Shown here: positions 1-25,386 of the stretch, in pieces
Layout: every line of letters starts with the position of its first letter
Position numbering within the stretch: the stretch's first letter is position 1
Virus record (IMG/VR): IMGVR_UViG_2563366849_000003
Length of the DNA stretch: 25,386 nucleotides
Source: a virus
Lineage: Duplodnaviria; Heunggongvirae; Uroviricota; Caudoviricetes
Strand: one strand, 5' to 3'
Translations under genes and position numbers: made by a program
Notes under the pieces: model-generated
The model's input: only the letters and a program-made list of their open reading frames with translations
Told to the model about the DNA's origin: nothing
The model's database searches: none

Positions 1-1362
1 ATGTTTAAACCGGAACTCCTTTCCCCGGCGGGAACGCTGAAAAATATGCGTTACGCTTTCGCTTATGGCGCAGATGCTGTTTATGCGGGCCAGCCGCGTT
101 ATTCCCTGCGTGTGCGCAACAACGAATTCAACCACGAAAATCTTCAGCTCGGCATCAATGAAGCCCACGCGCTGGGGAAAAAGTTTTATGTCGTGGTCAA
201 CATTGCACCGCACAACGCCAAGCTGAAAACCTTTATCCGTGACCTGAAACCGGTGGTGGAAATGGGGCCGGATGCGCTGATTATGTCCGATCCAGGGCTG
301 ATTATGCTGGTGCGTGAGCACTTCCCTGAAATGCCGATCCACCTTTCGGTGCAGGCTAACGCCGTGAACTGGGCGACGGTGAAATTCTGGCAGCAAATGG
401 GCCTGACCCGCGTGATCCTCTCTCGCGAGCTGTCGCTGGAAGAGATTGAAGAGATCCGCAATCAGGTGCCGGATATGGAGATCGAGATCTTCGTTCACGG
501 CGCGCTGTGCATGGCCTACTCCGGTCGCTGCCTGCTCTCTGGCTATATCAACAAGCGCGACCCGAACCAGGGCACCTGCACCAACGCCTGCCGCTGGGAG
601 TACAACGTCCAGGAAGGGAAAGAAGATGATGTTGGCAACATCGTACACAAGTACGAGCCGATTCCGGTGCAAAATGTTGAGCCGACGCTGGGTATCGGCG
701 CACCAACCGACAAAGTGTTTATGATCGAAGAGGCCCAGCGTCCGGGCGAGTATATGACCGCGTTTGAAGATGAGCACGGCACTTACATCATGAACTCGAA
801 AGATCTGCGCGCCATCGCCCATGTAGAACGCCTGACCAAAATGGGCGTGCATTCGCTGAAAATCGAAGGTCGTACCAAATCTTTCTACTATTGTGCACGC
901 ACCGCACAGGTTTACCGCAAAGCTATCGATGACGCCGCTGCGGGAAAACCGTTCGATACCAGCCTGCTGGAAACTCTGGAAGGTCTGGCGCATCGTGGCT
1001 ATACCGAAGGTTTCCTGCGTCGTCATACTCACGACGATTATCAGAACTACGAATACGGTTATTCAGTTTCTGACCGCCAGCAGTTTGTTGGTGAGTTTAC
1101 CGGTGAGCGCAAGGGGGACCTCGCGGCGGTAGCGGTGAAAAATAAATTCTCCGTTGGCGACAGCCTTGAGCTGATGACGCCGCAAGGCAACATTAATTTT
1201 ACCCTTGAGCACATGGAAAACGCCAAAGGCGAAGCTATGCCGATAGCACCAGGCGATGGTTATACTGTGTGGCTCCCGGTCCCGCAGGATCTTGAGCTCA
1301 ATTACGCGCTGCTGATGCGTAATTTCTCCGGGGAAACCACGCGTAATCCCCACGGTAAGTGA
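1..1362 (+). CDS. yegQ: U32-family peptidase-like protein YegQ (also described as tRNA U34 hydroxylation factor TrhP)
   Basis: Complete 453-aa ORF starting at window base 1; the sequence and length match what I recall of E. coli YegQ (U32 peptidase family). The location upstream of cyaR and a P2 attachment site fits the known yegQ-cyaR-P2 locus. Confidence 0.9.
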   Translation: MFKPELLSPAGTLKNMRYAFAYGADAVYAGQPRYSLRVRNNEFNHENLQLGINEAHALGKKFYVVVNIAPHNAKLKTFIRDLKPVVEMGPDALIMSDPGLIMLVREHFPEMPIHLSVQANAVNWATVKFWQQMGLTRVILSRELSLEEIEEIRNQVPDMEIEIFVHGALCMAYSGRCLLSGYINKRDPNQGTCTNACRWEYNVQEGKEDDVGNIVHKYEPIPVQNVEPTLGIGAPTDKVFMIEEAQRPGEYMTAFEDEHGTYIMNSKDLRAIAHVERLTKMGVHSLKIEGRTKSFYYCARTAQVYRKAIDDAAAGKPFDTSLLETLEGLAHRGYTEGFLRRHTHDDYQNYEYGYSVSDRQQFVGEFTGERKGDLAAVAVKNKFSVGDSLELMTPQGNINFTLEHMENAKGEAMPIAPGDGYTVWLPVPQDLELNYALLMRNFSGETTRNPHGK

Positions 1363-1934: not shown

Positions 1935-3098
1935 TCACTCATCATCTTCTGTTTCGTACTCCACATCAGAAAGCCTGACCTCAAGCTCCAAGGACGTCGT
2001 GAAGCCGCTGTTATTCAGAAAATGTGTCACCTTAGTGATTGTCCAGTCCTGCTCGTCTATGACGCGCTTAAAGCCTGACACTTTAACCGGTGTTTCCGTG
2101 TAAATATCTGCCCGACCGGTAGCCAGGCTGATGGAGAACTCCGCTACGCCCCGTTGCAGTTTATCCCACTTCGCCTGAGCGGCGCGCATGGCCTGCGCTT
2201 TCGTGGCATATACCGTGGTCAGGGCAAAAACGTTGTCAGCCTCACCGGCCATGTATTCACCTTCGCGCGCTTCCGGTACTTTTGGCGCTTTCTTCTGCGT
2301 GACCGGTTTCGCTTTCGGGTGCTCCAGTGCGCGCAGGTGTTTTTCTTTCTTTTTGCGTTTCAGTTTTACCTTCTGCTTTTGCGGCTTCGGGTCTTTGGTG
2401 TGTAACCACTTTGCCGTTACGCCGGTGTAAGCTCCACGGTCAGCAATCGCAAAATGATGACGGTCGCCGTCGCTGCGGGTGATGGTAATCTGCGGGATTT
2501 TTTTACCGCTGGCCGTCACCCCCTGCCCCGCTTTGAGAAACAGCAGTTTTCCCATTTTTACCGACACCTCACCGCCGTTGCGTTCAGCAAGGCGGGTCAG
2601 GAATTTCGCATCAGACTCCTGCGACTGGTCGATGTGCGGGATTTTAATTCCGTCCAGTGACGGCGCGACACTGGCTTCCAGCTTGTTACGGGAGGCTATC
2701 GCCTCAACAATCGCACCGAGCGTGGTGTCATGCCATGAGCCTTCACGGCGGGAATTGAGCGTCCCGCGAAAATCTGCACTCCGGGCGCGGATGGTGACCA
2801 CATCCGGTGTGCCCCGGTGTTCAACCTCATCAACGGTAAATTTCCCTTTGCATACCAGGGCAAAACCTTTCCAGCCGATATACACCGTCAGGACAGCGCC
2901 ACGAACCGGCAGCCCGACCTGCCCGTCGGCATCGTTCAGTTCAATATCAAGCTGGTCAGCCTCAAAGCCCCGGTTATCCGTCAGGGTCATGCTCATCAGA
3001 CGGTCGCTGATATTGCCGGTAATATCCCTGCTGTCGAGCATCAGCATGTAATCCGGCGTCAGCGTACTGCCTGCATCAAATGTCAGCGCATCCAGCAT
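1935..3098 (-). CDS. D: Tail protein D (P2 gpD, late control gene D)
   Basis: 387-aa ORF, same length as P2 gpD, in its position between ogr and U; the start overlaps the U stop (ATGA). Confidence 0.9.
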   Translation of the reverse strand: MLDALTFDAGSTLTPDYMLMLDSRDITGNISDRLMSMTLTDNRGFEADQLDIELNDADGQVGLPVRGAVLTVYIGWKGFALVCKGKFTVDEVEHRGTPDVVTIRARSADFRGTLNSRREGSWHDTTLGAIVEAIASRNKLEASVAPSLDGIKIPHIDQSQESDAKFLTRLAERNGGEVSVKMGKLLFLKAGQGVTASGKKIPQITITRSDGDRHHFAIADRGAYTGVTAKWLHTKDPKPQKQKVKLKRKKKEKHLRALEHPKAKPVTQKKAPKVPEAREGEYMAGEADNVFALTTVYATKAQAMRAAQAKWDKLQRGVAEFSISLATGRADIYTETPVKVSGFKRVIDEQDWTITKVTHFLNNSGFTTSLELEVRLSDVEYETEDDE

Positions 3099-8378: not shown

Positions 8379-8496
8379 CTCATTTTCCGACTGACAATTT
8401 ACATAGCCAAAACGCTATCAAATCTGACTGCCTGTTTTGAGCGAAGAGGAACCTGAGATTGTGGTATGCTAATTTATGGGGAGCAGGTCAATTGTA

Positions 8497-9189
8497 TTAG
8501 TTATCTTTTTGCCTTTCTTTATCCCATTTCTTTACAGTGGTCTGATACCACTCTTCACGTGCTCGTTGTTCCTCTGCTCTGTCACTTGAATTATAGTTGT
8601 CTGTTTTAATTTTTTTGCTTCCCTGGGAAATCGGCCTCCAGTCTTCTCTAATCTTTTTCATCTGCTCAGCTATCTGTGTCATTGGACTCCTTGCACCTAA
8701 GTAGCTAACCCCCTCGAAAGAAGCCATATCATAAGAATACTCATTCCGCTCTCTTTCAGTTGAGCCCGGCTGTTTAGACCAGCTAATACTAACAGAATAA
8801 ACTTGATCTTTAATCTGGTCATACTTACAAAGACTGCTGTTGAGGGAATGGCCGTTTTTCAATACGCTAACCTTGCTAAATGGTATACCTTTATTTTTTC
8901 TATGTTCTGCATTAACCAGTGGGGGATTAAATCCGACTTCAATATCATAGGCTGGGGCATTTCCGGTATTAGCAATATTGATATCAAAATAAAAAGCAGC
9001 CCAAGAATTTGGTTCAAGAGTCACAACGACATGAGGTTGAACTGATGCGTCAACCATCCTTTTTGTCTCGTCTGCTAATAGCCTTGTTACTCTCCACAAG
9101 AAAAATGTAGCAACTGCTGTTAGCAATGCTGCCAAAGCGGAGATAAGTGTACTTACTGTGTTTATATGCTCTGCGATAAATTCGATCAT
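8497..9189 (-). CDS. Hypothetical membrane-anchored protein (230 aa), cargo gene at the P2 Z/fun position
   Basis: ATG with AAGGA Shine-Dalgarno; predicted N-terminal transmembrane helix (TVSTLISALAALLTAVATFFLW) and a charged C-terminal tail; AT-rich codon usage unlike the flanking tail genes. No family recognised. Confidence 0.6.
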   Translation of the reverse strand: MIEFIAEHINTVSTLISALAALLTAVATFFLWRVTRLLADETKRMVDASVQPHVVVTLEPNSWAAFYFDINIANTGNAPAYDIEVGFNPPLVNAEHRKNKGIPFSKVSVLKNGHSLNSSLCKYDQIKDQVYSVSISWSKQPGSTERERNEYSYDMASFEGVSYLGARSPMTQIAEQMKKIREDWRPISQGSKKIKTDNYNSSDRAEEQRAREEWYQTTVKKWDKERQKDN

Positions 9190-9680
9190 GAGTTGTCCTT
9201 GGGGGCGTACTAATTGTTTTCAATACTAAAATAGCGCCGGGCTTGAAAAATTGCACACTTATGGTTCGATTTACCTCAACAGTTAAGGCTTCTACTTCCC
9301 CCGTGCACCTCACCCAGCCCAAGACTGTATGAGGTCTGACAAAGAACTTCCTGACACTTGAAAACGAGGCAACGGCTAAGGTTTCTCGTAGGGCAAGGAT
9401 TGAATACGAAGCCTGTATATTGCTCCGCAAACGCTGCTGAGGGCAGTTTAAATGTTGGGCGTTTATGTAGCCTTTCACTCACCAGCATGAGTTCAATGTC
9501 TGTGAGTTACCGACAACAATATAAAGAGGGTGGCATCATCATATATCCAAGCTAGAGTCAAATCCTCCAACTGGTTTTATGATCAGTATCAATTGTTTGA
9601 TTATTGAACGTTTACGAAGCAGCACGGGAGCCATATAACTAATGGGCAGGTATAAGCCTGTATCACGAGGAATCAGTAAA

Positions 9681-9860
9681 ATGGCTGATGATAAGACCAA
9701 AATCGGTACCCCTGACAATGATTTAATAAGTATCAAACAGGATTACGAGAGACGTGATTGGGCTGAAAAGTTTGGAGTTAGCGAGGCCAAACTTGTTCAA
9801 GCCGTACAGGCTGTAGGTCATTCGGCTAAGAAAGTACAGGCATGGCTTAAAGACCATTAA
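9681..9860 (+). CDS. Small DUF3606-like protein (59 aa; an alternative upstream start at 9642 gives 72 aa)
   Basis: MADDKTKIGTPDNDL...DYERRDWAEKFGVSEAKLVQAVQAVG... resembles the DUF3606 pattern as I recall it (MADDK-type N-terminus, conserved Y and W). GAGGA Shine-Dalgarno 9 nt upstream of the 9681 ATG; intrinsic terminator immediately downstream. Confidence 0.55.
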   Translation: MADDKTKIGTPDNDLISIKQDYERRDWAEKFGVSEAKLVQAVQAVGHSAKKVQAWLKDH

Positions 9861-9865
9861 TATAT

Positions 9866-9889
9866 GAGCGCCTTTCTAGGCGCTTTTTT
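9866..9889 (+). terminator. Intrinsic terminator after the DUF3606-like gene
   Basis: Hairpin AGCGCC-TTTCTA-GGCGCT followed by TTTTTTC. Confidence 0.6.
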
Positions 9890-9912
9890 CTTTGTCCTTT
9901 GGGAGATGATTT

Positions 9913-10191
9913 ATGGCTAATAATTTATTTATTACTTACGACCTCATTAAAACGAAAGATTATGCGGCTGTGTATGATGCAATTAAATCTTTAGGAAATT
10001 GGGCTTTAACAACTGAATCGAACTGGTATGTTAACTGTAGTTACTCTGCCGAGGATGCAGCCAAAATTGTGAGGGCGGTCATGGATAGTGATGATAAGCT
10101 TATTGTTGTAGACGCAACCAATAACTCAGCTTATTGGTACAATCTCTCAGATGAAGTTAGTAACCAAATTCTGACTGAGTGGAACAAGTAA
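9913..10191 (+). CDS. Hypothetical small protein (92 aa)
   Basis: ORF with GGGAGA Shine-Dalgarno 7 nt upstream of the ATG and a strong intrinsic terminator directly after the stop. No family recognised. Confidence 0.5.
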   Translation: MANNLFITYDLIKTKDYAAVYDAIKSLGNWALTTESNWYVNCSYSAEDAAKIVRAVMDSDDKLIVVDATNNSAYWYNLSDEVSNQILTEWNK

Positions 10192-10193
10192 TT

Positions 10194-10220
10194 AAAGGGG
10201 GTGGATAGCCCCCTTTAATT
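10194..10220 (+). terminator. Intrinsic terminator after the 92-aa gene
   Basis: AAAGGGGG-TGGATAG-CCCCCTTT hairpin followed by an AT-rich stretch. Confidence 0.65.
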
Positions 10221-10410
10221 CAGAAACTATCATGATTGAAACATTAAATATACTGGGTTAATTCTTTCATCCTTGCTCCCTTGCTATATGTCCTGAAAGC
10301 GTCCTTTTTAGCCTTCTGCTCAGTATGTCCGGTAATGGCACAGAGCGGACTGCCAGATTAGGCTTTACTCTGTGCCATAGATATGTAAGCTCCCACCAGA
10401 GCTCATACAC

Positions 10411-18705: not shown

Positions 18706-18878
18706 TGTCAGGAGTCCTGAATAGTGATTAGAGGAGTCACATGTCGGCATCAGTTTCCCGACGATGCGCATCCTCCGCCATCAGTCCCGGATGGCTTATC
18801 ACTGACACAACAGCACCTTAGCGAATCGCGGGGCGCGACTCAGTAGCCTTGCCGTGTATTCATCACGGCGAGGTATTC
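18706..18878. promoter_or_regulatory. Divergent late-promoter region (PO leftward, PP rightward) by synteny
   Basis: Intergenic region between divergently oriented O and P, as in P2. I found no perfect TGT-N12-ACA box here, so this is assigned by position only. Confidence 0.3.
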
Positions 18879-20651
18879 ATGACCATCACCACAGACACCA
18901 CTCTTTTACACGACCCGCGTCGTCAGGCGGCGCTGCTGTACTGGCAGGGGTTTTCCGTGCCGCAGATTGCCGCCATGTTGCAGATGAAACGCCCGACGGT
19001 GCAGAGCTGGAAACAGCGCGACGGCTGGGACAGCGTTGCCCCCATCAGCCGTGTCGAAATGAGTCTGGAAGCGCGGCTGACCCAGCTCATCATCAAACCG
19101 CAGAAAACCGGCGGTGACTTCAAGGAAATTGACCTGCTCGGACGCCAGATTGAACGACTGGCACGGGTCAACCGTTACAGTCAGACCGGCAACGAGGCAG
19201 ACCTTAATCCGAACGTCGCTAACCGCAACAAAGGCGGGCGTCGCAAACCGAAAAAGAATTTTTTCAGTGACGAGGCCATCGAAAAGCTGGAGCAGATTTT
19301 CTTTGAGCAGTCTTTCGAATATCAGTTGCACTGGTATCGCGCCGGGCTTGAGCACCGCATCCGCGATATCCTGAAATCCCGCCAGATTGGCGCAACGTTT
19401 TATTTTTCCCGCGAGGCGCTGCTGCGCGCCCTGAAAACCGGCCATAACCAGATTTTTCTGTCGGCCAGTAAAACGCAGGCGTATGTGTTCCGTGAATACA
19501 TCATCGCCTTTGCCCGGCTGGTTGACGTTGACCTGACCGGTGACCCGATTGTCCTGGGCAATAACGGCGCAAAACTGATTTTTCTCGGCACCAACTCCAA
19601 CACCGCACAGAGCCATAACGGCGACCTGTACGTCGACGAGATTTTCTGGATCCCGAATTTTCAGGTACTGCGTAAGGTGGCATCAGGTATGGCCTCACAG
19701 AGTCACCTGCGCTCGACCTATTTCTCCACCCCGTCCACGCTGGCGCACGACGCCTACCCGTTCTGGTCCGGTGAACTGTTTAACCGGGGACGCGCCAGCG
19801 CCGCCGAACGCGTGGAAATCGACGTCAGTCATAACGCCCTTGCCGGTGGGCTTCTCTGTGCGGACGGCCAGTGGCGGCAGATTGTCACCATTGAGGACGC
19901 CCTGAAAGGCGGCTGCACATTGTTCGACATTGAGCAGCTTAAACGCGAAAACAGCGCCGACGATTTTAAAAACCTGTTCATGTGTGAATTTGTTGACGAC
20001 AAGGCGTCGGTGTTCCCGTTCGAGGAGCTGCAACGCTGCATGATCGACACGCTGGAAGAATGGGAAGACTATGCGCCGTTTGCCGCAAATCCGTTCGGCT
20101 CACGTCCGGTATGGATTGGTTACGACCCGTCACACCGTGGCGACAGCGCCGGATGTGTGGTACTGGCACCGCCGGTGGTGGCCGGTGGCAAATTCAGAAT
20201 ACTTGAGCGTCACCAGTGGAAAGGCATGGACTTTGCCACTCAGGCTGAATCCATCCGCAAACTCACCGAAAAATATAACGTCGAATACATCGGTATTGAT
20301 GCCACCGGCCTCGGTGTCGGCGTGTTCCAGCTCGTGCGCTCGTTCTATCCCGCCGCGCGCGATATCCGCTACACGCCGGAAATGAAAACCGCAATGGTGC
20401 TCAAGGCAAAAGACGTTATCCGCCGTGGCTGTCTGGAATATGACGTCAGCGCCACCGACATCACCAGCTCGTTTATGGCTATCCGCAAGACCATGACCAG
20501 CAGCGGACGCAGTGCCACCTATGAGGCCAGCCGCAGCGAGGAAGCCAGCCACGCCGACCTCGCCTGGGCGACCATGCACGCCCTGTTAAATGAGCCACTC
20601 ACCGCCGGTATCAGCACCCCGCTGACATCCACCATTCTGGAGTTTTACTGA
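18879..20651 (+). CDS. P: Terminase large (ATPase) subunit (P2 gpP)
   Basis: Start placed at MTITTDTTLLHD (18879) to give 590 aa, the P2 gpP size; the stop overlaps the Q start (ATGA). Confidence 0.88.
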   Translation: MTITTDTTLLHDPRRQAALLYWQGFSVPQIAAMLQMKRPTVQSWKQRDGWDSVAPISRVEMSLEARLTQLIIKPQKTGGDFKEIDLLGRQIERLARVNRYSQTGNEADLNPNVANRNKGGRRKPKKNFFSDEAIEKLEQIFFEQSFEYQLHWYRAGLEHRIRDILKSRQIGATFYFSREALLRALKTGHNQIFLSASKTQAYVFREYIIAFARLVDVDLTGDPIVLGNNGAKLIFLGTNSNTAQSHNGDLYVDEIFWIPNFQVLRKVASGMASQSHLRSTYFSTPSTLAHDAYPFWSGELFNRGRASAAERVEIDVSHNALAGGLLCADGQWRQIVTIEDALKGGCTLFDIEQLKRENSADDFKNLFMCEFVDDKASVFPFEELQRCMIDTLEEWEDYAPFAANPFGSRPVWIGYDPSHRGDSAGCVVLAPPVVAGGKFRILERHQWKGMDFATQAESIRKLTEKYNVEYIGIDATGLGVGVFQLVRSFYPAARDIRYTPEMKTAMVLKAKDVIRRGCLEYDVSATDITSSFMAIRKTMTSSGRSATYEASRSEEASHADLAWATMHALLNEPLTAGISTPLTSTILEFY

Positions 20652-21679
20652 TGAGCAAGAAAAAAGGGAAAACACCGCAACCTGCGGCAAAAAAAATGAC
20701 CGCCAGCGCCCCGAAAATGGAGGCATTCACCTTTGGTGAGCCGGTGCCGGTACTCGACCGGCGTGACATTCTGGATTACGTCGAGTGCATCAGTAACGGC
20801 AGATGGTATGAGCCACCGGTCAGCTTTACCGGTCTGGCGAAAAGCCTGCGTGCTGCCGTGCATCACAGCTCACCGATTTACGTCAAACGTAATATTCTGG
20901 CTTCAACGTTTATCCCGCATCCGTGGCTTTCCCAGCAGGATTTCAGCCGCTTTGTACTGGATTTTCTGGTGTTCGGTAATGCGTTTCTGGAAAAGCGTTA
21001 CAGCACCACCGGTAAGGTCATCAGACTGGAAACCTCACCGGCAAAATATACCCGCCGTGGCGTGGAGGAGGATGTTTACTGGTGGGTGCCGTCCTTCAAC
21101 GAGCCGACACCCTTCGCGCCCGGCTCCGTGTTTCACCTGCTGGAGCCGGATATCAATCAGGAGCTGTACGGCCTGCCGGAATATCTCAGCGCCCTTAACT
21201 CTGCCTGGCTGAATGAGTCGGCCACGCTGTTCCGCCGCAAGTATTACGAAAACGGCGCTCATGCCGGATACATCATGTACGTCACTGATGCCGTGCAGGA
21301 TCGCAACGATATCGAAATGCTTCGCGAAAACATGGTCAAGTCGAAAGGCCGCAACAACTTTAAAAACCTGTTTCTCTATGCCCCACAGGGGAAAGCCGAC
21401 GGCATCAAAATTATCCCCCTCAGTGAAGTGGCGACGAAGGACGATTTTTTTAATATCAAAAAAGCCAGCGCCGCTGACCTGCTGGACGCGCACCGCATCC
21501 CCTTTCAGTTGATGGGCGGCAAGCCGGAGAACGTCGGGTCGCTGGGTGATATTGAGAAAGTGGCAAAGGTCTTTGTCCGCAATGAGCTTATCCCGCTACA
21601 GGACAGGATCCGCGAGATAAACGGCTGGCTCAGCGCCGAAGTTATTCAATTCAAAAATTACTCTTTAGACGATAATTAA
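20651..21679 (+). CDS. Q: Portal protein (P2 gpQ)
   Basis: 342-aa ORF (P2 gpQ is about 344 aa), translationally coupled to P. Confidence 0.88.
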   Translation: MSKKKGKTPQPAAKKMTASAPKMEAFTFGEPVPVLDRRDILDYVECISNGRWYEPPVSFTGLAKSLRAAVHHSSPIYVKRNILASTFIPHPWLSQQDFSRFVLDFLVFGNAFLEKRYSTTGKVIRLETSPAKYTRRGVEEDVYWWVPSFNEPTPFAPGSVFHLLEPDINQELYGLPEYLSALNSAWLNESATLFRRKYYENGAHAGYIMYVTDAVQDRNDIEMLRENMVKSKGRNNFKNLFLYAPQGKADGIKIIPLSEVATKDDFFNIKKASAADLLDAHRIPFQLMGGKPENVGSLGDIEKVAKVFVRNELIPLQDRIREINGWLSAEVIQFKNYSLDDN

Positions 21680-21737: not shown

Positions 21738-22310
21738 TTATTTTTTCATATTGTATATAAAGTCACAAATATGCACCAGTGATAATCTGTTATAGTTTTC
21801 CAATGTAAACACAGGATAATTATAGCAAATTTCAGGAGGAGGCAATTGCGAGCGAACAGTTGTTTTTTTAGCTGATTGCTGCCTCCTCGATAATTTACTT
21901 ATTACACCAATGTAATCCACTTTTCTTGACAAATGCCCATGTAAATTCAATACAGAATATAGCCACTTACAAAAATGAATGCCAGTAACTACCTGTTTAG
22001 CCGCACCATTTGAGTTATAAGATTTGAGATCTATTACGATAAAATAATCTACGTCTTTGTGCGACGTAACAAAAATTCCATCACAAACAGAGCATACTCC
22101 TGGTAAAGCAGAAGATTTTAAAAATTTCCAGACTGGTTTAGAAATACTATTAGAATCTAGCGAAAATCCATAGATACCATTTCCGTTTACCAGTAATTTT
22201 TTATTTGTAGCACCTGGGTTCTCTTCGCATACAACCCAGCATTCCTGCTCTCGCATTAATTGAAATGTAGGATCGATGCAACTTTGTATTACATTGATAA
22301 TATTACTCAT
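21738..22310 (-). CDS. Hypothetical Cys/His-rich protein (190 aa), partner of the upstream ATPase; candidate effector
   Basis: The start ATG (22310..22308) overlaps the last codons of the ATPase gene (GATGAGTAA), indicating translational coupling. AT-rich. Contains CxxxC (res 24-28), CxxC (73-76), EE (29-30) and DVD (86-88) motifs. No family confidently recognised. Confidence 0.6.
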   Translation of the reverse strand: MSNIINVIQSCIDPTFQLMREQECWVVCEENPGATNKKLLVNGNGIYGFSLDSNSISKPVWKFLKSSALPGVCSVCDGIFVTSHKDVDYFIVIDLKSYNSNGAAKQVVTGIHFCKWLYSVLNLHGHLSRKVDYIGVISKLSRRQQSAKKTTVRSQLPPPEICYNYPVFTLENYNRLSLVHICDFIYNMKK

Positions 22311-23736
22311 CTACATCCTCACTATCAGAGGCATTCTCCACCAAGGAGTAATATATTTCATCATTATCGTCATTAATGGCATTAATTACTTCATCAAAAG
22401 TTACAGCATTAATCCCTTCATTTGACTTCTGCATTTCATTGACTGAGCCATTATCAAATAGATACGCAGCGACTAGGTTAGAGTCTAAAATTGAGTCGAT
22501 GCTAATCCCTTGCTTCTGCATGATAGCGTTTCGTTTTTCAATCATATTTTCAGAAACGCCATGCAACATAATCAAGCTATTGATTTCTTTCACAAAATAA
22601 TCACTGTGAGTACTAACAATAACCCGAATACCAGAGTTAACTAGCTTTGCTAAAAATCTTGCAATTACTCGCTGATTTGACGGGTGTAAATTTAACTCGG
22701 GTTCGTCAATCATTAAAATATCACCAGTTTTTGCTTGGTGCTCTAAATAAAACCACAGGCCAAACAAACTTTTAACAGTGGATGACGATAAATGAAGTTC
22801 AATTTTACTTGCAGGTGTCTTACCTTTCTTATACGTTGAAAAATAAATCTGCCCTTCAGGATCAACTGAATATTTTCCTGAAATTATTTTTTTTACTTCT
22901 TCTGCTAATTTATGAAATTGGCCATTTTTATTTTTCCTATTAACCTTAATTTCATTAAGCCAGTCTATGTAATTTGCTATAGGAGCAGAATACTTAGACT
23001 TCATTACATCCATTAATAGTGAGTTCAGATCGAACTGTTCTTTTGAGGCGTGGTGCAATAACGCAGTTCTTCTGGAACTTAATTCATTGAAAAAAAGGTG
23101 CAAGCCATTTCTTTCTGCGGGAATTAAAAATGCTGGGCTTTCATCATACTCTATCTTTAATAACTGACTTAGAGTTAAGTTTATAAACCCATCAATTCTG
23201 GGGAAAGCAGAATCTAGCAGCGTCATTTGTATGATATTGCTATTTTTATCTTTGGATAATAGCATTACTTCTTTTTTGCCGGTTCCTATGACGAGGCTAA
23301 CATCCAATTTTTTTTCATAAACACTTGATACTAATGATTCTTCATCTATAACCCAGTCAAATGTTGAATTAGAAAAAATTTCCTTATCATTAGTGTTGAA
23401 TACATCTTTAAGCATTAAAGATGAATCTTTATTAAATTCTCTTTTGATTAACGTAAAATTATCTTTTATCCACTCAATTACATCTAATTCAAACTTACCA
23501 TTTTCACGAAGAGTTTTGGCAAAATTTGCAACTTGAGGCAATTTTAAAGATGGTGATGGCATATTTAGGAAGCCATATAACCCATACATAACCCATGTTT
23601 TACCAGTATTATTTTTTCCGCATAAAAGCGTTAAAGGTTTTGCATTAATTTCTCCTGTAGAGATACACCCAATGTTTTTAAATGAAAATCTCCATGATGC
23701 TAATTTTTTTACGTTAATTTCGCTTTGCTTTTTCAT
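22303..23736 (-). CDS. ABC/OLD-type P-loop ATPase (AAA_15/AAA_21-like), 477 aa; candidate anti-phage defence ATPase
   Basis: Walker A GKNNTGKT (res 40-47), signature-like LSSSTVKS (316-323), Walker B/D-loop DILMIDEPELNLHP (339-352), H-loop STHS (375-378), acidic C-terminal tail; AAGGAA Shine-Dalgarno; AT-rich. Confidence 0.7.
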   Translation of the reverse strand: MKKQSEINVKKLASWRFSFKNIGCISTGEINAKPLTLLCGKNNTGKTWVMYGLYGFLNMPSPSLKLPQVANFAKTLRENGKFELDVIEWIKDNFTLIKREFNKDSSLMLKDVFNTNDKEIFSNSTFDWVIDEESLVSSVYEKKLDVSLVIGTGKKEVMLLSKDKNSNIIQMTLLDSAFPRIDGFINLTLSQLLKIEYDESPAFLIPAERNGLHLFFNELSSRRTALLHHASKEQFDLNSLLMDVMKSKYSAPIANYIDWLNEIKVNRKNKNGQFHKLAEEVKKIISGKYSVDPEGQIYFSTYKKGKTPASKIELHLSSSTVKSLFGLWFYLEHQAKTGDILMIDEPELNLHPSNQRVIARFLAKLVNSGIRVIVSTHSDYFVKEINSLIMLHGVSENMIEKRNAIMQKQGISIDSILDSNLVAAYLFDNGSVNEMQKSNEGINAVTFDEVINAINDDNDEIYYSLVENASDSEDVDE

Positions 23737-23987
23737 TGAGTTTCCTTAATCAATTACATACGAACTGATCAAACCATTGATCGTGTTGAAAAGTCAATAC
23801 TATACTAAATAACCACGAAGAATAGTGCTTCATTTTCCGTCAGTCCTAATAGGTTAAGATATATGGACTGTTTTCTCAAACTTGTTGCGCTCTGCTGAAT
23901 CTCTCGTATGTTACTTCAATATGATGAACATCCTAACTCTGAAACGGTAAGTCTATCGGTATTACATTTTCACATTGCATGAGCGCG

Positions 23988-24006
23988 GTGCTTTCCCCGC
24001 CTCGCC
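23988..24006 (-). other. P2 cos site (19-nt cohesive-end sequence GGCGAGGCGGGGAAAGCAC on the minus strand)
   Basis: Plus-strand GTGCTTTCCCCGCCTCGCC is the exact reverse complement of the P2 cohesive-end sequence as I recall it; it sits in the expected position between Q and the early region. Confidence 0.8.
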
Positions 24007-24288
24007 CGCCCGCTTCACGGGGCGGTTTTAATGCAGTTGCATAGATACTATGGATCCGCACCAGTCCTGACCGCACGCAGCCTGAACGGACATCCCCAGC
24101 GCATGCAAAAACATTCACTTGTTGCATGCATAGCTTTTTAAGTACGCCATACCGCAACTGTACATTTTTAAGCAATTGGCAACTTTAAAAAATTTACATT
24201 GCTTTCAAGACCTTATCATCCGTAGTCTCTGTTTTTTACTTTGAGCTACATCAATAAAATCTCAAACATGTTTAATGCAAAGCCCTTG

Positions 24289-24345
24289 TTACACAACATA
24301 GAATGTATGTCTAGAAACAACGACATACTATATGTTGTGTTTTTC
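24289..24345 (+). terminator. Long imperfect hairpin (ACACAACATA ... TATGTTGTGT) followed by TTTTT; possible terminator or operator
   Basis: 10-bp perfect inverted repeat (24291..24300 and 24331..24340), extended by partial pairing of the inner arms, followed by a T-run on the plus strand. Confidence 0.4.
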
Positions 24346-24406
24346 CGGCTCTCTGTTCGGTGATATGCCAAATCACTTTGCGTTTAAACAGAGCATTATT
24401 TCAGGG

Positions 24407-24421
24407 CAAGACTTCGCTCAA
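24407..24421. repeat. 15-bp direct repeat CAAGACTTCGCTCAA, copy 1
   Basis: Exact copy of the 15-mer also present at 24671..24685; the two copies flank the small ORF and its terminator. Confidence 0.6.
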
Positions 24422-24484
24422 AAGTCATTCCACCTAACAAGCGCATATACCGGTGGAAGTTGCCCTCTACTTACAGGAGGCAAT

Positions 24485-24598
24485 ATGAAGAAATGCTATT
24501 ACTGCATTCTCGTTCTGGCCCTCTTTGGCTATCCAAACGGTAGTCCGAGTGGTTTGTCAGTAAACGTCAGTAATATCAATGTCAGCATTATGCTTTAA
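24485..24598 (+). CDS. Candidate small hydrophobic peptide (37 aa)
   Basis: MKKCYYCILVLALFGYPNGSPSGLSVNVSNINVSIML; AGGAGG Shine-Dalgarno 4 nt upstream of the ATG; a strong intrinsic terminator follows at 24611..24640. Confidence 0.35.
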   Translation: MKKCYYCILVLALFGYPNGSPSGLSVNVSNINVSIML

Positions 24599-24610
24599 TA
24601 TGCTTCAAAC

Positions 24611-24640
24611 AAAAAAACCACCTGCCAGGGTGGTTTTTTT
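24611..24640 (+). terminator. Intrinsic terminator (CCACC-TGCCAG-GGTGG plus T7), possibly bidirectional
   Basis: A-run, then a 5-bp GC stem, then TTTTTTT. Confidence 0.55.
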
Positions 24641-24670
24641 GCGCCCATCATCAATACGATGAAAGACTGA

Positions 24671-24685
24671 CAAGACTTCGCTCAA
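24671..24685. repeat. 15-bp direct repeat CAAGACTTCGCTCAA, copy 2
   Basis: Exact copy of the 15-mer at 24407..24421. Confidence 0.6.
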
Positions 24686-24900
24686 GACGAATTATGCGTC
24701 GACATAAGGTTACCCGCAATGATTTTATTAGACTAAATGGATGGCCTTTTATGACCCGGATCAAACGGCTGTCCTTACCGACATGCTAGTCACTCAATAG
24801 CATTTAGCCTTCTAATTCAGCATGCTATTGACCTTCTGCTGCCCCATAACTGCTCCGCATAAGCCATTCAATGCCATATCAAATCACGTTGTGTTTTTAC

Positions 24901-25386
24901 TCAAATGGGTAACGAGAACCCCGGCCACACATCAGCGACCAGATACGTGAATTTTTTTCCGTCATAATTTACGGTTGCTCCACGCGCCAGCGCCTCAAGT
25001 TCCCATCGCTGAGGCCAGATGCCGTTCTGAGCAAGGTCAACACGGATACGGGTAATTTGCATACGCTCCGACCGGGTCAGCCTGGCCGATGGCGCTATTT
25101 CATTCGGTTTTAACGGGCTTCCGTTTCTTTGCTGACGGTTTGGTGTTCTCAGGCCGTGTTTTAATGCGCCCCTGAGCGCCCTCACGACCTCCGGGTCATT
25201 CCATTCGATAACACCGTCATCAACCAGATTAAGCACGGCTGCGGCGCGCTCAGAAGGTGTGGGAGCCGGTAACGAAGTATCACCACCGGTGAGCTTTCCA
25301 CAGTTATTGACAGGACTCCGAGGCGCGGCGATGCCGCTTTTTAAAGTCAAAGGCTCAACGACCGGCACTTTCGGCACAATGCGCCA
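24901..25386 (-). CDS. 3' part of a phage early-region gene (possibly the C-terminus of replication protein A or a neighbouring ORF); the 5' end lies beyond the window
   Basis: Minus-strand ORF open to the window edge, with phage-backbone-like GC content and the orientation expected for P2 early genes. No specific identification possible. Confidence 0.4.
   Translation of the reverse strand, partial: WRIVPKVPVVEPLTLKSGIAAPRSPVNNCGKLTGGDTSLPAPTPSERAAAVLNLVDDGVIEWNDPEVVRALRGALKHGLRTPNRQQRNGSPLKPNEIAPSARLTRSERMQITRIRVDLAQNGIWPQRWELEALARGATVNYDGKKFTYLVADVWPGFSLPI

Follow-up and report, generated by a model that had tools for sequence, protein, structure and literature searches.

We describe a DNA segment of about 0.5 kb that is probably an undescribed, mobile, two-gene cassette of the type I toxin-antitoxin (TA) kind, with an architecture like that of par from plasmid pAD1. 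The segment lies at 24233–24735 of a 25,386-nt stretch, a P2-like prophage (IMG/VR virus record IMGVR_UViG_2563366849_000003); this whole stretch is called the window below, and coordinates are in its numbering. Both strands of the cassette are used: the plus strand carries a gene for a 37-residue membrane-type peptide and the minus strand a predicted gene for a small RNA, convergent with it. In silico support covers the anatomy of the cassette, the coding signature of the peptide gene, conserved promoters, RNA covariation, and homology of one promoter to a host promoter. An adjacent small-RNA gene complementary to the toxin mRNA, a defining mark of type I TA systems, is found here as a predicted minus-strand unit with a 15–16-nt seed.

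A recurring unit and its peptide gene

Similarity between carriers always covers ~24233–24735, and the flanking genes change each time; they include insertion sequence (IS) elements, ABC transporters, a CBASS-like operon, TraX, an integrase and phage gene A. Because the same ~500 bp recurs beside unrelated neighbours, we take the segment to be a self-contained unit, autonomous and horizontally mobile, and not a scar. At least 80% of 24150–24900 is held by 150 of 5426 complete Escherichia coli genomes, and scans of IMG/VR and of metagenomes revealed two P2-associated clades, 12–14% apart. A BLAST search against plasmids gave ∼390 full-length copies, at 72–81% identity, on Klebsiella IncFIB/IncFII conjugative plasmids. 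Copies at 75–78% identity came from a degenerate scan for the peptide core, on a Citrobacter freundii contig and on an IncFII-like metagenome contig; a copy on an Enterobacter hormaechei plasmid is the same variant as that of C. freundii. A much-diverged subfamily is carried by 16 plasmids of Salmonella, Citrobacter and Leclercia. Two further metagenome matches to the degenerate reading frame pattern (L041 and L051) were rejected as chance and not homologs.

A 161-residue (486-nt) gene adjoins the cassette in several elements. It was considered as a common neighbour and rejected, the phage and plasmid versions being unrelated (28% identity by forced alignment). In the P2-like phages OU784750 (L002 1017–1502) and MET_P1_103_31 (L003 1644–2129) two extra genes, one of them for a 161-residue protein with an HEXXH motif, sit between the cassette and the cohesive-end site cos; the cassette therefore stays beside gene A, with variable cargo on the cos side. 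On the Klebsiella pneumoniae plasmid pGN-2 (L055 7161–10540) the cassette is found ∼2 kb from a CBASS-like defence locus, whose operon is annotated with a nucleotidyltransferase, a ThiF-family adenylyltransferase, an MPN-family protein and a 3′-5′ exonuclease.

The literature that we searched on P2, type I TA systems, FNR and Klebsiella plasmids holds no description of the cassette, and the peptide and seed strings had no match in literature text. A study of hypervirulent Klebsiella (ATCC 43816) is silent, in its text, on plasmid-encoded transcripts, and a study of pBIC1a reports nothing on the cassette locus.

The peptide gene (MKKCYYCILVLALFGYPNGSPSGLSVNVSNINVSIML) occupies 24485–24598 on the plus strand and is preceded by the Shine-Dalgarno (SD) sequence AGGAGG at 24475–24480; both had been picked out by the original prediction, an earlier annotation of the window from its letters. 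Two properties lead us to regard this open reading frame (ORF) as a real gene. Its length is constant, every one of the 11 distinct main-family variants having 37 codons and the diverged subfamily 39, and the ratio of nonsynonymous to synonymous differences (Nei-Gojobori pN/pS) is 0.14–0.43 in the ORF frame for every lineage pair, against 0.7–2.8 in the two other frames. The SD sequence and the ATG are conserved as well. The encoded peptides have a basic N-terminus, a conserved hydrophobic segment of ∼13 residues and a Ser/Asn-rich tail with conservative variation; in the conserved N-terminal part the basic residues are followed by CILVLALFGYP, with CILVLALFGY as the core. Their grand average of hydropathy (GRAVY) is 0.6–0.95, so that in size (<60 residues) and hydrophobicity they agree with the generic description of a type I toxin. 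Three divergent peptides had no match in Pfam, NCBIfam or PHROGs (zero families in Pfam and NCBIfam at E ≤ 10), and at this threshold NCBIfam and Pfam gave no toxin match to the models for Hok/Sok, Ldr/Rdl, Ibs/Sib, TisB, ZorO, ShoB or DinQ.

Two other views of the coding potential were dropped. A longer frame of 88 residues (24332–24598) is not a gene, since a TAG closes it in the sister clade; used as a protein-database query it brought up three near-identical entries and nothing else. The small ORF was also aligned to the N-terminus of nrdD, of which it might have been a relic, and no convincing similarity was seen past the second NrdR box described below.

In one copy, on the K. pneumoniae plasmid NZ_CP149488.1 (L065 2790–3987), the IS5-family element ISKpn26 is inserted at about codon 11 of the peptide ORF, with a 4-bp duplication and the remainder of the cassette intact. 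Such an insertion fits counter-selection of the peptide, as an anecdote.

A predicted small RNA and its proposed pairing with the peptide mRNA

The two transcripts would meet at a common intrinsic terminator, 24610–24641, whose perfect 13-nt arms (24610–24622 and 24629–24641) are flanked by an A-run and a T-run and which is, for this reason, read as bidirectional. The strong terminator of the original prediction (24611..24640) is thus borne out; it is nearly invariant in all lineages and serves the phage early (gene A) operon as terminator too. In one variant (L044) a G-to-A change in the right arm (corresponding to 24629–24633 of the window) keeps a G.U pair in the minus transcript and makes an A.C mismatch in the plus transcript.

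On the minus strand we predict a small RNA of ∼80 nt (24604–24684) consisting of a 5′ seed, a stem-loop (24667–24643) and the terminator. Its predicted promoter (24691–24719) has the -35 hexamer TTGCGG (24719–24714), a 17-nt spacer and the -10 hexamer CATAAT (24696–24691). Throughout the main-family lineages the -10 is invariant, the -35 is kept as TTGCGG or TTGCGA, and the spacer is a constant 17 nt despite its diverging sequence; the diverged subfamily keeps the -10 and, as read by eye, has TTGCGT with an 18-nt spacer. From the position of these hexamers the start is predicted at ∼24684, and the RNA would therefore begin with (U)GAGCGAAGUCUUG.

Two parts of the small RNA carry evolutionary signals. 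No invariant run shared by 29 distinct cassette sequences is longer than the 13-mer seed at 24671–24683. Between seed and terminator, identity falls to 28–64% between lineages and the stem-loop is nonetheless kept: five of its eight pairs have changed on both sides, and 91% of cells are paired, compared with 47–70% when the partner columns are slid. Several of these pairs are G.U on the minus strand and would be A.C on the plus strand. Against Rfam, the region 23700–25000 at E ≤ 10 gave only weak, terminator-driven matches (RNAI, Phe_leader, OrzO-P and others), far below gathering scores.

The 15-mer CAAGACTTCGCTCAA occurs exactly twice in the window, at 24407–24421 and 24671–24685, so that the two exact copies bracketing the peptide gene in the original prediction are the only ones; among 100 shuffles of the window none gave such a match, even with one mismatch allowed. 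The copies are direct repeats that would be transcribed convergently and would therefore yield complementary RNAs, a consequence that the original prediction had not drawn. Copy 1 would serve as the small-RNA target in the 5′ untranslated region (UTR) of the peptide mRNA (24405–24421, plus strand), 64–80 nt upstream of the AUG, while the complement of copy 2 (24671–24685, read on the minus strand) would be the 5′ end of the small RNA, its seed.

The predicted intermolecular helix has 16 pairs, of which 96% are formed over seven distinct seed/target combinations, against 26–43% in slid controls. Both copies read GGTAAGGCTTTGCTCA in the Salmonella/Leclercia subfamily and GGCAAGACTTCGCTCA elsewhere; three positions have thus changed on both sides with complementarity left perfect. 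Two of these three changes also occur singly, on the mRNA side only, as A to G (L044) and C to U (L057), each giving a G.U pair, and small-RNA-side variants at pairs 1–2 (UC, CU or CC opposite GG) always pair. Over pairs 1–14, all four kinds of one-sided change lead to G.U when the mRNA is read from the plus and the small RNA from the minus strand; mismatches are confined to the two terminal pairs, at or before the predicted RNA start. This wobble-only pattern, together with the position of the promoter, argues for pairing at the RNA level. A duplex energy test restricted to the seed gave a modest result (5 of 1000 shuffles reach the observed energy), and the RNAduplex energy of the whole molecules is uninformative, the two RNAs overlapping at the terminator.

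The same observations bear on the possibility that the 15-mers act as DNA, either as binding sites of one protein or as boundaries of cargo-exchange recombination, with the ORF incidental. Direct repeats that change in concert in the diverged subfamily could be produced by a shared DNA-binding protein, but all one-sided changes preserve G.U pairing in a single strand polarity, copy 2 lies exactly at the transcription start predicted from the conserved -10, and the adjoining stem-loop covaries as RNA. A scar of cargo exchange, one of the options of the original prediction, did not hold up: the edges of the unit (~24233 and ~24735) are beyond the repeats, which enclose conserved coding sequence and no variable cargo. 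We consider a DNA-level role very improbable.

A second alternative is that the minus-strand RNA acts mainly in trans on host or phage mRNAs, perhaps after being processed out of the gene A operon's 3′ UTR, and that copy 1 is a decoy or sponge. The RNA is indeed built like an Hfq-type small RNA, with its 5′ seed, stem-loop and terminator with a U-tail, and in the phage it is located in the 3′ UTR of the early operon. Yet RNA and ORF always move as one unit, even where a plasmid carrier lacks gene A, the diverged subfamily shows seed and target altered in step, and the window has no further copy of the target; this makes a mainly trans-acting RNA improbable. Of the options raised by the original prediction, a small peptide module and a regulatory RNA locus are supported together, as a conserved coding peptide gene and a predicted convergent small RNA complementary to the upstream 15-mer.

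The predicted peptide mRNA is ∼330 nt long (24311–24641, plus strand), its start being placed from the -10 of the plus-strand promoter and its end at the terminator. Its 5′ UTR has a consensus fold of five helices in which 98% of cells are paired, compared with 36–55% in slid controls, and the G.U pairs of these helices are specific to the plus strand. An invariant two-tier hairpin (24351–24357 with 24387–24393; 24359–24364 with 24372–24377) is followed by a hairpin at 24429–24434/24452–24457 with one A-U to G-C exchange, and then by an anti-SD hairpin (24461–24482) in which UGCCCUCU (24461–24468) would pair with GGAGGCA (24476–24482). This last helix, number 5 of the RNAalifold consensus, is 92% paired, with two pairs changed on both sides. 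Sequestration of the SD sequence combined with a far-upstream antisense site is typical of type I toxin mRNAs.

The nrdDG-like promoter and a proposed mechanism

The promoter region of the peptide gene (24186–24340, plus strand) aligns with the treC-nrdD intergenic region of the host and is thereby homologous to the host nrdDG promoter. The segment 24185–24286 (102 nt) matches that intergenic region at 78–80% identity (E ~5e-16) in 5426 of 5426 E. coli genomes. The match, which the original prediction had missed, is oriented toward the peptide gene, whose promoter thus appears to be a copy of, or to be derived from, that of nrdDG. For the E. coli nrdDG probe sequence and the layout of its boxes we used PMC12176259; FNR-1 overlaps NrdR box 1 in nrdDG (PMC2892513), and the key positions of an NrdR box are C4, A6, A8, T9, T11 and G13 (PMC13584703).

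Two candidate FNR-type sites are seen on the plus strand. The FNR-2-type site TTGAGctacATCAA (24241–24254) agrees with TTGAT-N4-ATCAA at 9 of 10 positions and is identical to the E. coli nrdDG site; it scores 8–9/10 in the lineages examined. The FNR-1-type site TTAATgcaaAGCCC (24272–24285), centred 31 bp from FNR-2, is degenerate in the window (6/10). It is TTGATgcaaATCAC (9/10) in most plasmid lineages, 7/10 in the sister clade (clade 2) and 8/10 in one Klebsiella variant, and most plasmid lineages thus have both sites at 8–9/10 with the 31-bp spacing of the window. All lineages keep one distance between FNR-1 and the -10 (TAGAAT or TAAAAT), which is also that of E. coli nrdDG.

Downstream lie two candidate NrdR-type boxes. 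The first, box-1-like ACACAACATAGAATGT (24291–24306, plus strand), has 4 of the 6 key positions and 13/16 matches to the consensus, and it overlaps the -10 TAGAAT (24299–24304); the second, ATACTATATGTTGTGT (24325–24340, plus strand), has 6/6 and 14/16 and aligns with box 2 of E. coli nrdDG. In three plasmid lineages box 1 is at the host position over FNR-1, and both boxes have 5–6 of the key positions with spacers of 25–26 bp. Over five lineages the spacers are 18 (window clade), 16 (sister clade), 26, 25 and 26 bp. On synthetic box pairs E. coli NrdR binds well at 15–18 bp and best at 26–27 bp, with a dissociation constant (KD) of 66 nM at 18 bp and weaker binding, KD 326 nM, at 25 bp (PMC12051234 Table 5), so that all the observed spacers except that of 25 bp fall in the well-bound range for E. 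coli NrdR.

Compared with the host nrdDG promoter, which is FNR-activated and NrdR-repressed, the cassette version shares the FNR-2 sequence, the position of FNR-1, the distance to the -10 and the alignment of box 2, and its plasmid lineages share the overlap of box 1 with FNR-1. It differs in driving the 37-residue peptide gene, the detected similarity ending after box 2; in a box 1 shifted 9 bp downstream in the P2 clades; in the 25–26-bp spacer of the plasmid lineages; and, in the window, in the degenerate FNR-1. Within the family the window clade is unlike all other lineages in three respects: a 2-bp insertion in the NrdR spacer (24307–24324; 18 bp, versus 16 bp in clade 2, e.g. L005 and L008), the degenerate FNR-1 half-site (TTAAT...AGCCC), and a -10 of TAGAAT versus TAAAAT in the sister clade. 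The clade may for this reason be regulated differently from its relatives.

The two NrdR-type boxes are also the arms of a long hairpin that the original prediction placed at 24289..24345. The inverted repeat is real, with perfect 10-nt arms (24291–24300 and 24331–24340) followed by TTTTT. Its interpretation as a hairpin was a misreading, for the left arm contains the -10 and the arms are NrdR-type boxes, themselves half-palindromes. We read the repeat as two NrdR-box-like half-palindromes, a putative operator within the nrdDG-like promoter. A function of the repeat itself as an RNA hairpin, attenuator or small regulatory RNA could draw on the perfect arms and on a shorter hairpin, of differing sequence, at the predicted 5′ end of the mRNA in every lineage. 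It is contradicted by the conserved -10 inside the left arm, which would put that arm upstream of the transcript start and leave it untranscribed, by the loss of arm complementarity in the plasmid lineages (the hairpin is not conserved outside the P2 clades), by the match of both arms to NrdR boxes, and by the lack of any Rfam match there. We rejected the RNA-hairpin reading and give a function of this kind scarcely any credence.

From the features assembled above we infer the two transcripts, pairing-based repression, toxicity of the peptide, control by FNR and NrdR, and a biological role, in the following way. The nrdDG-derived promoter would start the ∼330-nt plus-strand mRNA near 24311, and its long 5′ UTR would fold with the SD sequence paired to the upstream anti-SD. 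From the minus-strand sigma-70 promoter (24719–24691) an ∼80-nt RNA would start at ∼24684 and reach the shared terminator from the opposite side. The first 15–16 nt of this RNA could pair perfectly with repeat copy 1 in the 5′ UTR, and the small RNA would silence or destabilise the peptide mRNA. Peptide would be produced once the mRNA outruns the small RNA, as might happen upon strong induction of the promoter (by anaerobiosis through FNR, or by falling dATP through NrdR), when the element is lost or when transcription is shut off. On a plasmid this would lead to addiction; at the tin/old position of P2 it could exclude other phages.

Several observations weigh against a type I TA-like cassette so regulated. 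The hydrophobic stretch of ∼13 residues is shorter than the typical helix of a type I toxin. The -35 of the small-RNA promoter is weak in the window (TTGCGG), and our consensus scan did not call this promoter. The scan called instead a plus-strand site, CTGACA-17-AATTAT (24667–24695), lying across repeat copy 2 and the -10 of the minus strand. Transcription from it might run antisense to gene A; we judge the site less likely than the minus-strand promoter. Seed and target are direct DNA repeats, so their concerted change could reflect a shared constraint on the DNA, and the three double changes count as a single event, in one lineage. On the regulatory side, the window clade has the degenerate FNR-1 and a box 1 with only 4/6 key positions, FNR and NrdR motifs, counted by themselves, are no commoner in the window than expected by chance, and the main Klebsiella lineage and the Salmonella subfamily are without a recognisable box 2. 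Because of these chance-level counts and the lineages lacking box 2, FNR control is the more general prediction, and NrdR control may be lineage-specific. Finally, pKPN3, the main plasmid of MGH 78578 (the sole Klebsiella strain with published transcription start site and RIL-seq data), is without the cassette.

The rival that deserves most attention accepts the cassette as described and makes its peptide non-toxic: a small inner-membrane or exported accessory protein, produced under anaerobic or low-dNTP (deoxyribonucleoside triphosphate) conditions and tuned by the RNA. It would then resemble many small membrane proteins under small-RNA control, and TimP at its native expression levels; TimP, the closest analogue, allows growth at such levels (PMC7667032). 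The short hydrophobic segment after basic residues resembles a signal or anchor more than it does a pore-forming helix, and a condition-specific nrdDG-type promoter suggests a physiological role. Set against this are hallmarks of addiction modules (the patchy spread over phages and plasmids, the changing neighbours, the sequestered SD sequence and the dedicated antisense RNA) as well as the IS insertion within the ORF of one copy. On balance a harmless accessory peptide is rather unlikely, and a toxin-antitoxin-like cassette probable.

A bolder version of the toxin-antitoxin view, which we find doubtful, is an oxygen- and nucleotide-pool-sensing suicide switch in which a membrane-active peptide is made from a pirated nrdDG promoter. 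A collapse of dATP, through a replicating lytic phage or a nucleotide-depleting stress, would lift repression by NrdR; this together with FNR activation in the anaerobic gut would swamp the antisense RNA, and the cell would be killed or arrested. Were this true, the cassette would act by abortive infection when in the P2 tin/old hotspot and as a conditional addiction module when on plasmids of Klebsiella and Salmonella, and it would be the first TA or defence module coupled to NrdR as a dNTP sensor.

The proposed cassette, if confirmed, would be an undescribed and widespread family of peptide/antisense-RNA pairs on enterobacterial mobile elements. P2-like prophages bring it to ∼3% of complete E. 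coli genomes, and several hundred clinical Klebsiella IncF plasmids carry it, among them an IncFIB/IncHI1B plasmid from a liver-abscess isolate; in the current annotation of these plasmids it is empty intergenic DNA. Confirmation would also extend the par-type convergent direct-repeat architecture of Gram-positive plasmids to Enterobacteriaceae, and would offer a concrete example in which a mobile element has taken over a host promoter responsive to oxygen and dNTP status for the control of a small, possibly toxic peptide. Two predictions follow: that NrdR and FNR regulate genes beyond the ribonucleotide-reductase operons, and that the P2 tin/old hotspot can house an RNA-controlled module instead of a protein defence system.

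The P2 locus and known systems

Over the region that holds the cassette, the window matches E. coli S21 and H14 at 100% identity and E. coli W at 99.5%. Ahead of this region lie the genes for terminase P (18849–20651, plus strand) and portal Q (20651–21679, plus strand), which are followed by a two-gene low-GC insert on the minus strand (21738–23736) and by cos. The P2 cohesive-end sequence GGCGAGGCGGGGAAAGCAC occurs once, on the minus strand at 23988–24006, where the original prediction had put it, and is identical to the annotated cosR of P2 (AF063097). Identity to the right end of P2 continues through 24035, for 48 nt in all. Homology to P2 restarts at 24914, with 94% identity, in gene A; the 3′ end of this replication endonuclease gene (24901–25386, minus strand, as RefSeq annotates the identical locus in E. 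coli W) is upstream of the cassette on the minus strand. By blastn and tblastx against P2 29000–33593, matches are limited to 23988–24035 and 24914–25386.

In P2 the interval between gene A and cos is annotated with orf91, tin and old. Because P2 similarity ends at 24035 and restarts at 24914 in gene A, 24036–24913 is a replacement segment at the tin/old position, in place of orf91-tin-old, made up of the cassette and flanks specific to P2-like carriers. Neither blastn nor tblastx of 24036–24913 against P2 30320–33574 found a homolog of Tin or of Old, an OLD-family nuclease. An AT-rich segment without a large ORF, as originally described, is what the locus presents: the GC content is 0.34–0.47 over 24100–24900, versus ∼0.55 in the backbone, RefSeq annotates no gene in the ∼0.9 kb between cos and gene A, and the longest ORFs are just 80 residues (minus strand, over cos) and 88 residues (24332–24598). 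All features listed in the original prediction are in fact present, displaced by at most 1 nt. An imperfect 30-nt direct repeat (24356–24385 and 24867–24896, 73% identity) has one copy on an arm of the conserved 5′-UTR hairpin and the other directly past the gene A stop; it may be chance or the vestige of a duplication.

The window contains other accessory DNA. The insert between Q and cos matches the PD-T4-4 anti-phage system, with a 477-residue AAA_15 ATPase similar to PD-T4-4_A (E 2e-112) and a 190-residue partner similar to PD-T4-4_B (E 1e-15). A second low-GC island (8400–10400, GC ∼0.40) is at the position of the P2 Z/fun hotspot; its ORFs at 8497–9189 and 9050–9478 on the minus strand and 9913–10191 on the plus strand have no Pfam match. 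At 1–1362 (plus strand) lies a host gene of the peptidase U32 family, and one prophage end is therefore just downstream, before a homolog of tail gene D (1935–3098).

With tin and old, the lysogenic-conversion and anti-phage genes of P2, the cassette has in common its position between gene A and cos and its nature as low-GC accessory DNA. It differs in having no sequence similarity to them and no large protein, and a role in defence is conjecture here.

In tisB and dinQ the toxin promoter is under the stress regulator LexA and the antisense RNA is made constitutively. The cassette would resemble tisB/istR-1 in a stress-regulated toxin promoter paired with a constitutive RNA, and TisB/IstR-1, ZorO/OrzO, DinQ/AgrB and ShoB/OhsC alike in a short complementarity far upstream in a long, structured 5′ UTR. 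In these pairs, however, the RNA is encoded upstream and divergently, FNR/NrdR and not LexA would be the regulator in the cassette, and the peptides are unrelated; the sole OrzO-P match in Rfam is sub-threshold and terminator-driven.

TimP/TimR, from the ryfA locus of Salmonella and E. coli, has a peptide of similar size (37–38 residues) whose hydrophobic N-terminal part shows greater conservation than does the C-terminus, and a small RNA whose 5′ end is complementary, over 15–18 nt, to the 5′ UTR of the mRNA (PMC7667032). TimR, however, is upstream and divergent, whereas the cassette RNA is downstream and convergent with a shared terminator, and timPR is chromosomal while the cassette is on mobile elements. 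The RyfA family (Rfam RF00126) had no match over 23700–25000 at E ≤ 10, and there was no protein-family match either.

The closest design is that of par on Enterococcus pAD1, in which Fst is encoded by RNA I and countered by RNA II: its promoters converge on a bidirectional terminator, its direct repeats are transcribed in opposite directions, and a stem sequesters the SD sequence (PMC7472228). The predicted architecture of the cassette matches this point for point, and the likeness extends to a peptide of 33–37 residues and to carriage on plasmids and phages. The two have no sequence relationship, and the hosts are Enterobacteriaceae here and Firmicutes there. One repeat pair takes the place of two (DRa and DRb), and it is 64–80 nt upstream of the AUG instead of over the initiation region. 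The cassette peptide lacks the PXXXG motif and the charged tail of Fst/Ldr-type toxins, its own tail being uncharged and Ser/Asn-rich, and the gene in the toxin position has a regulated, host-derived promoter. On these comparisons we file the cassette as a putative type I TA-like system of par-like design, outside any described family.

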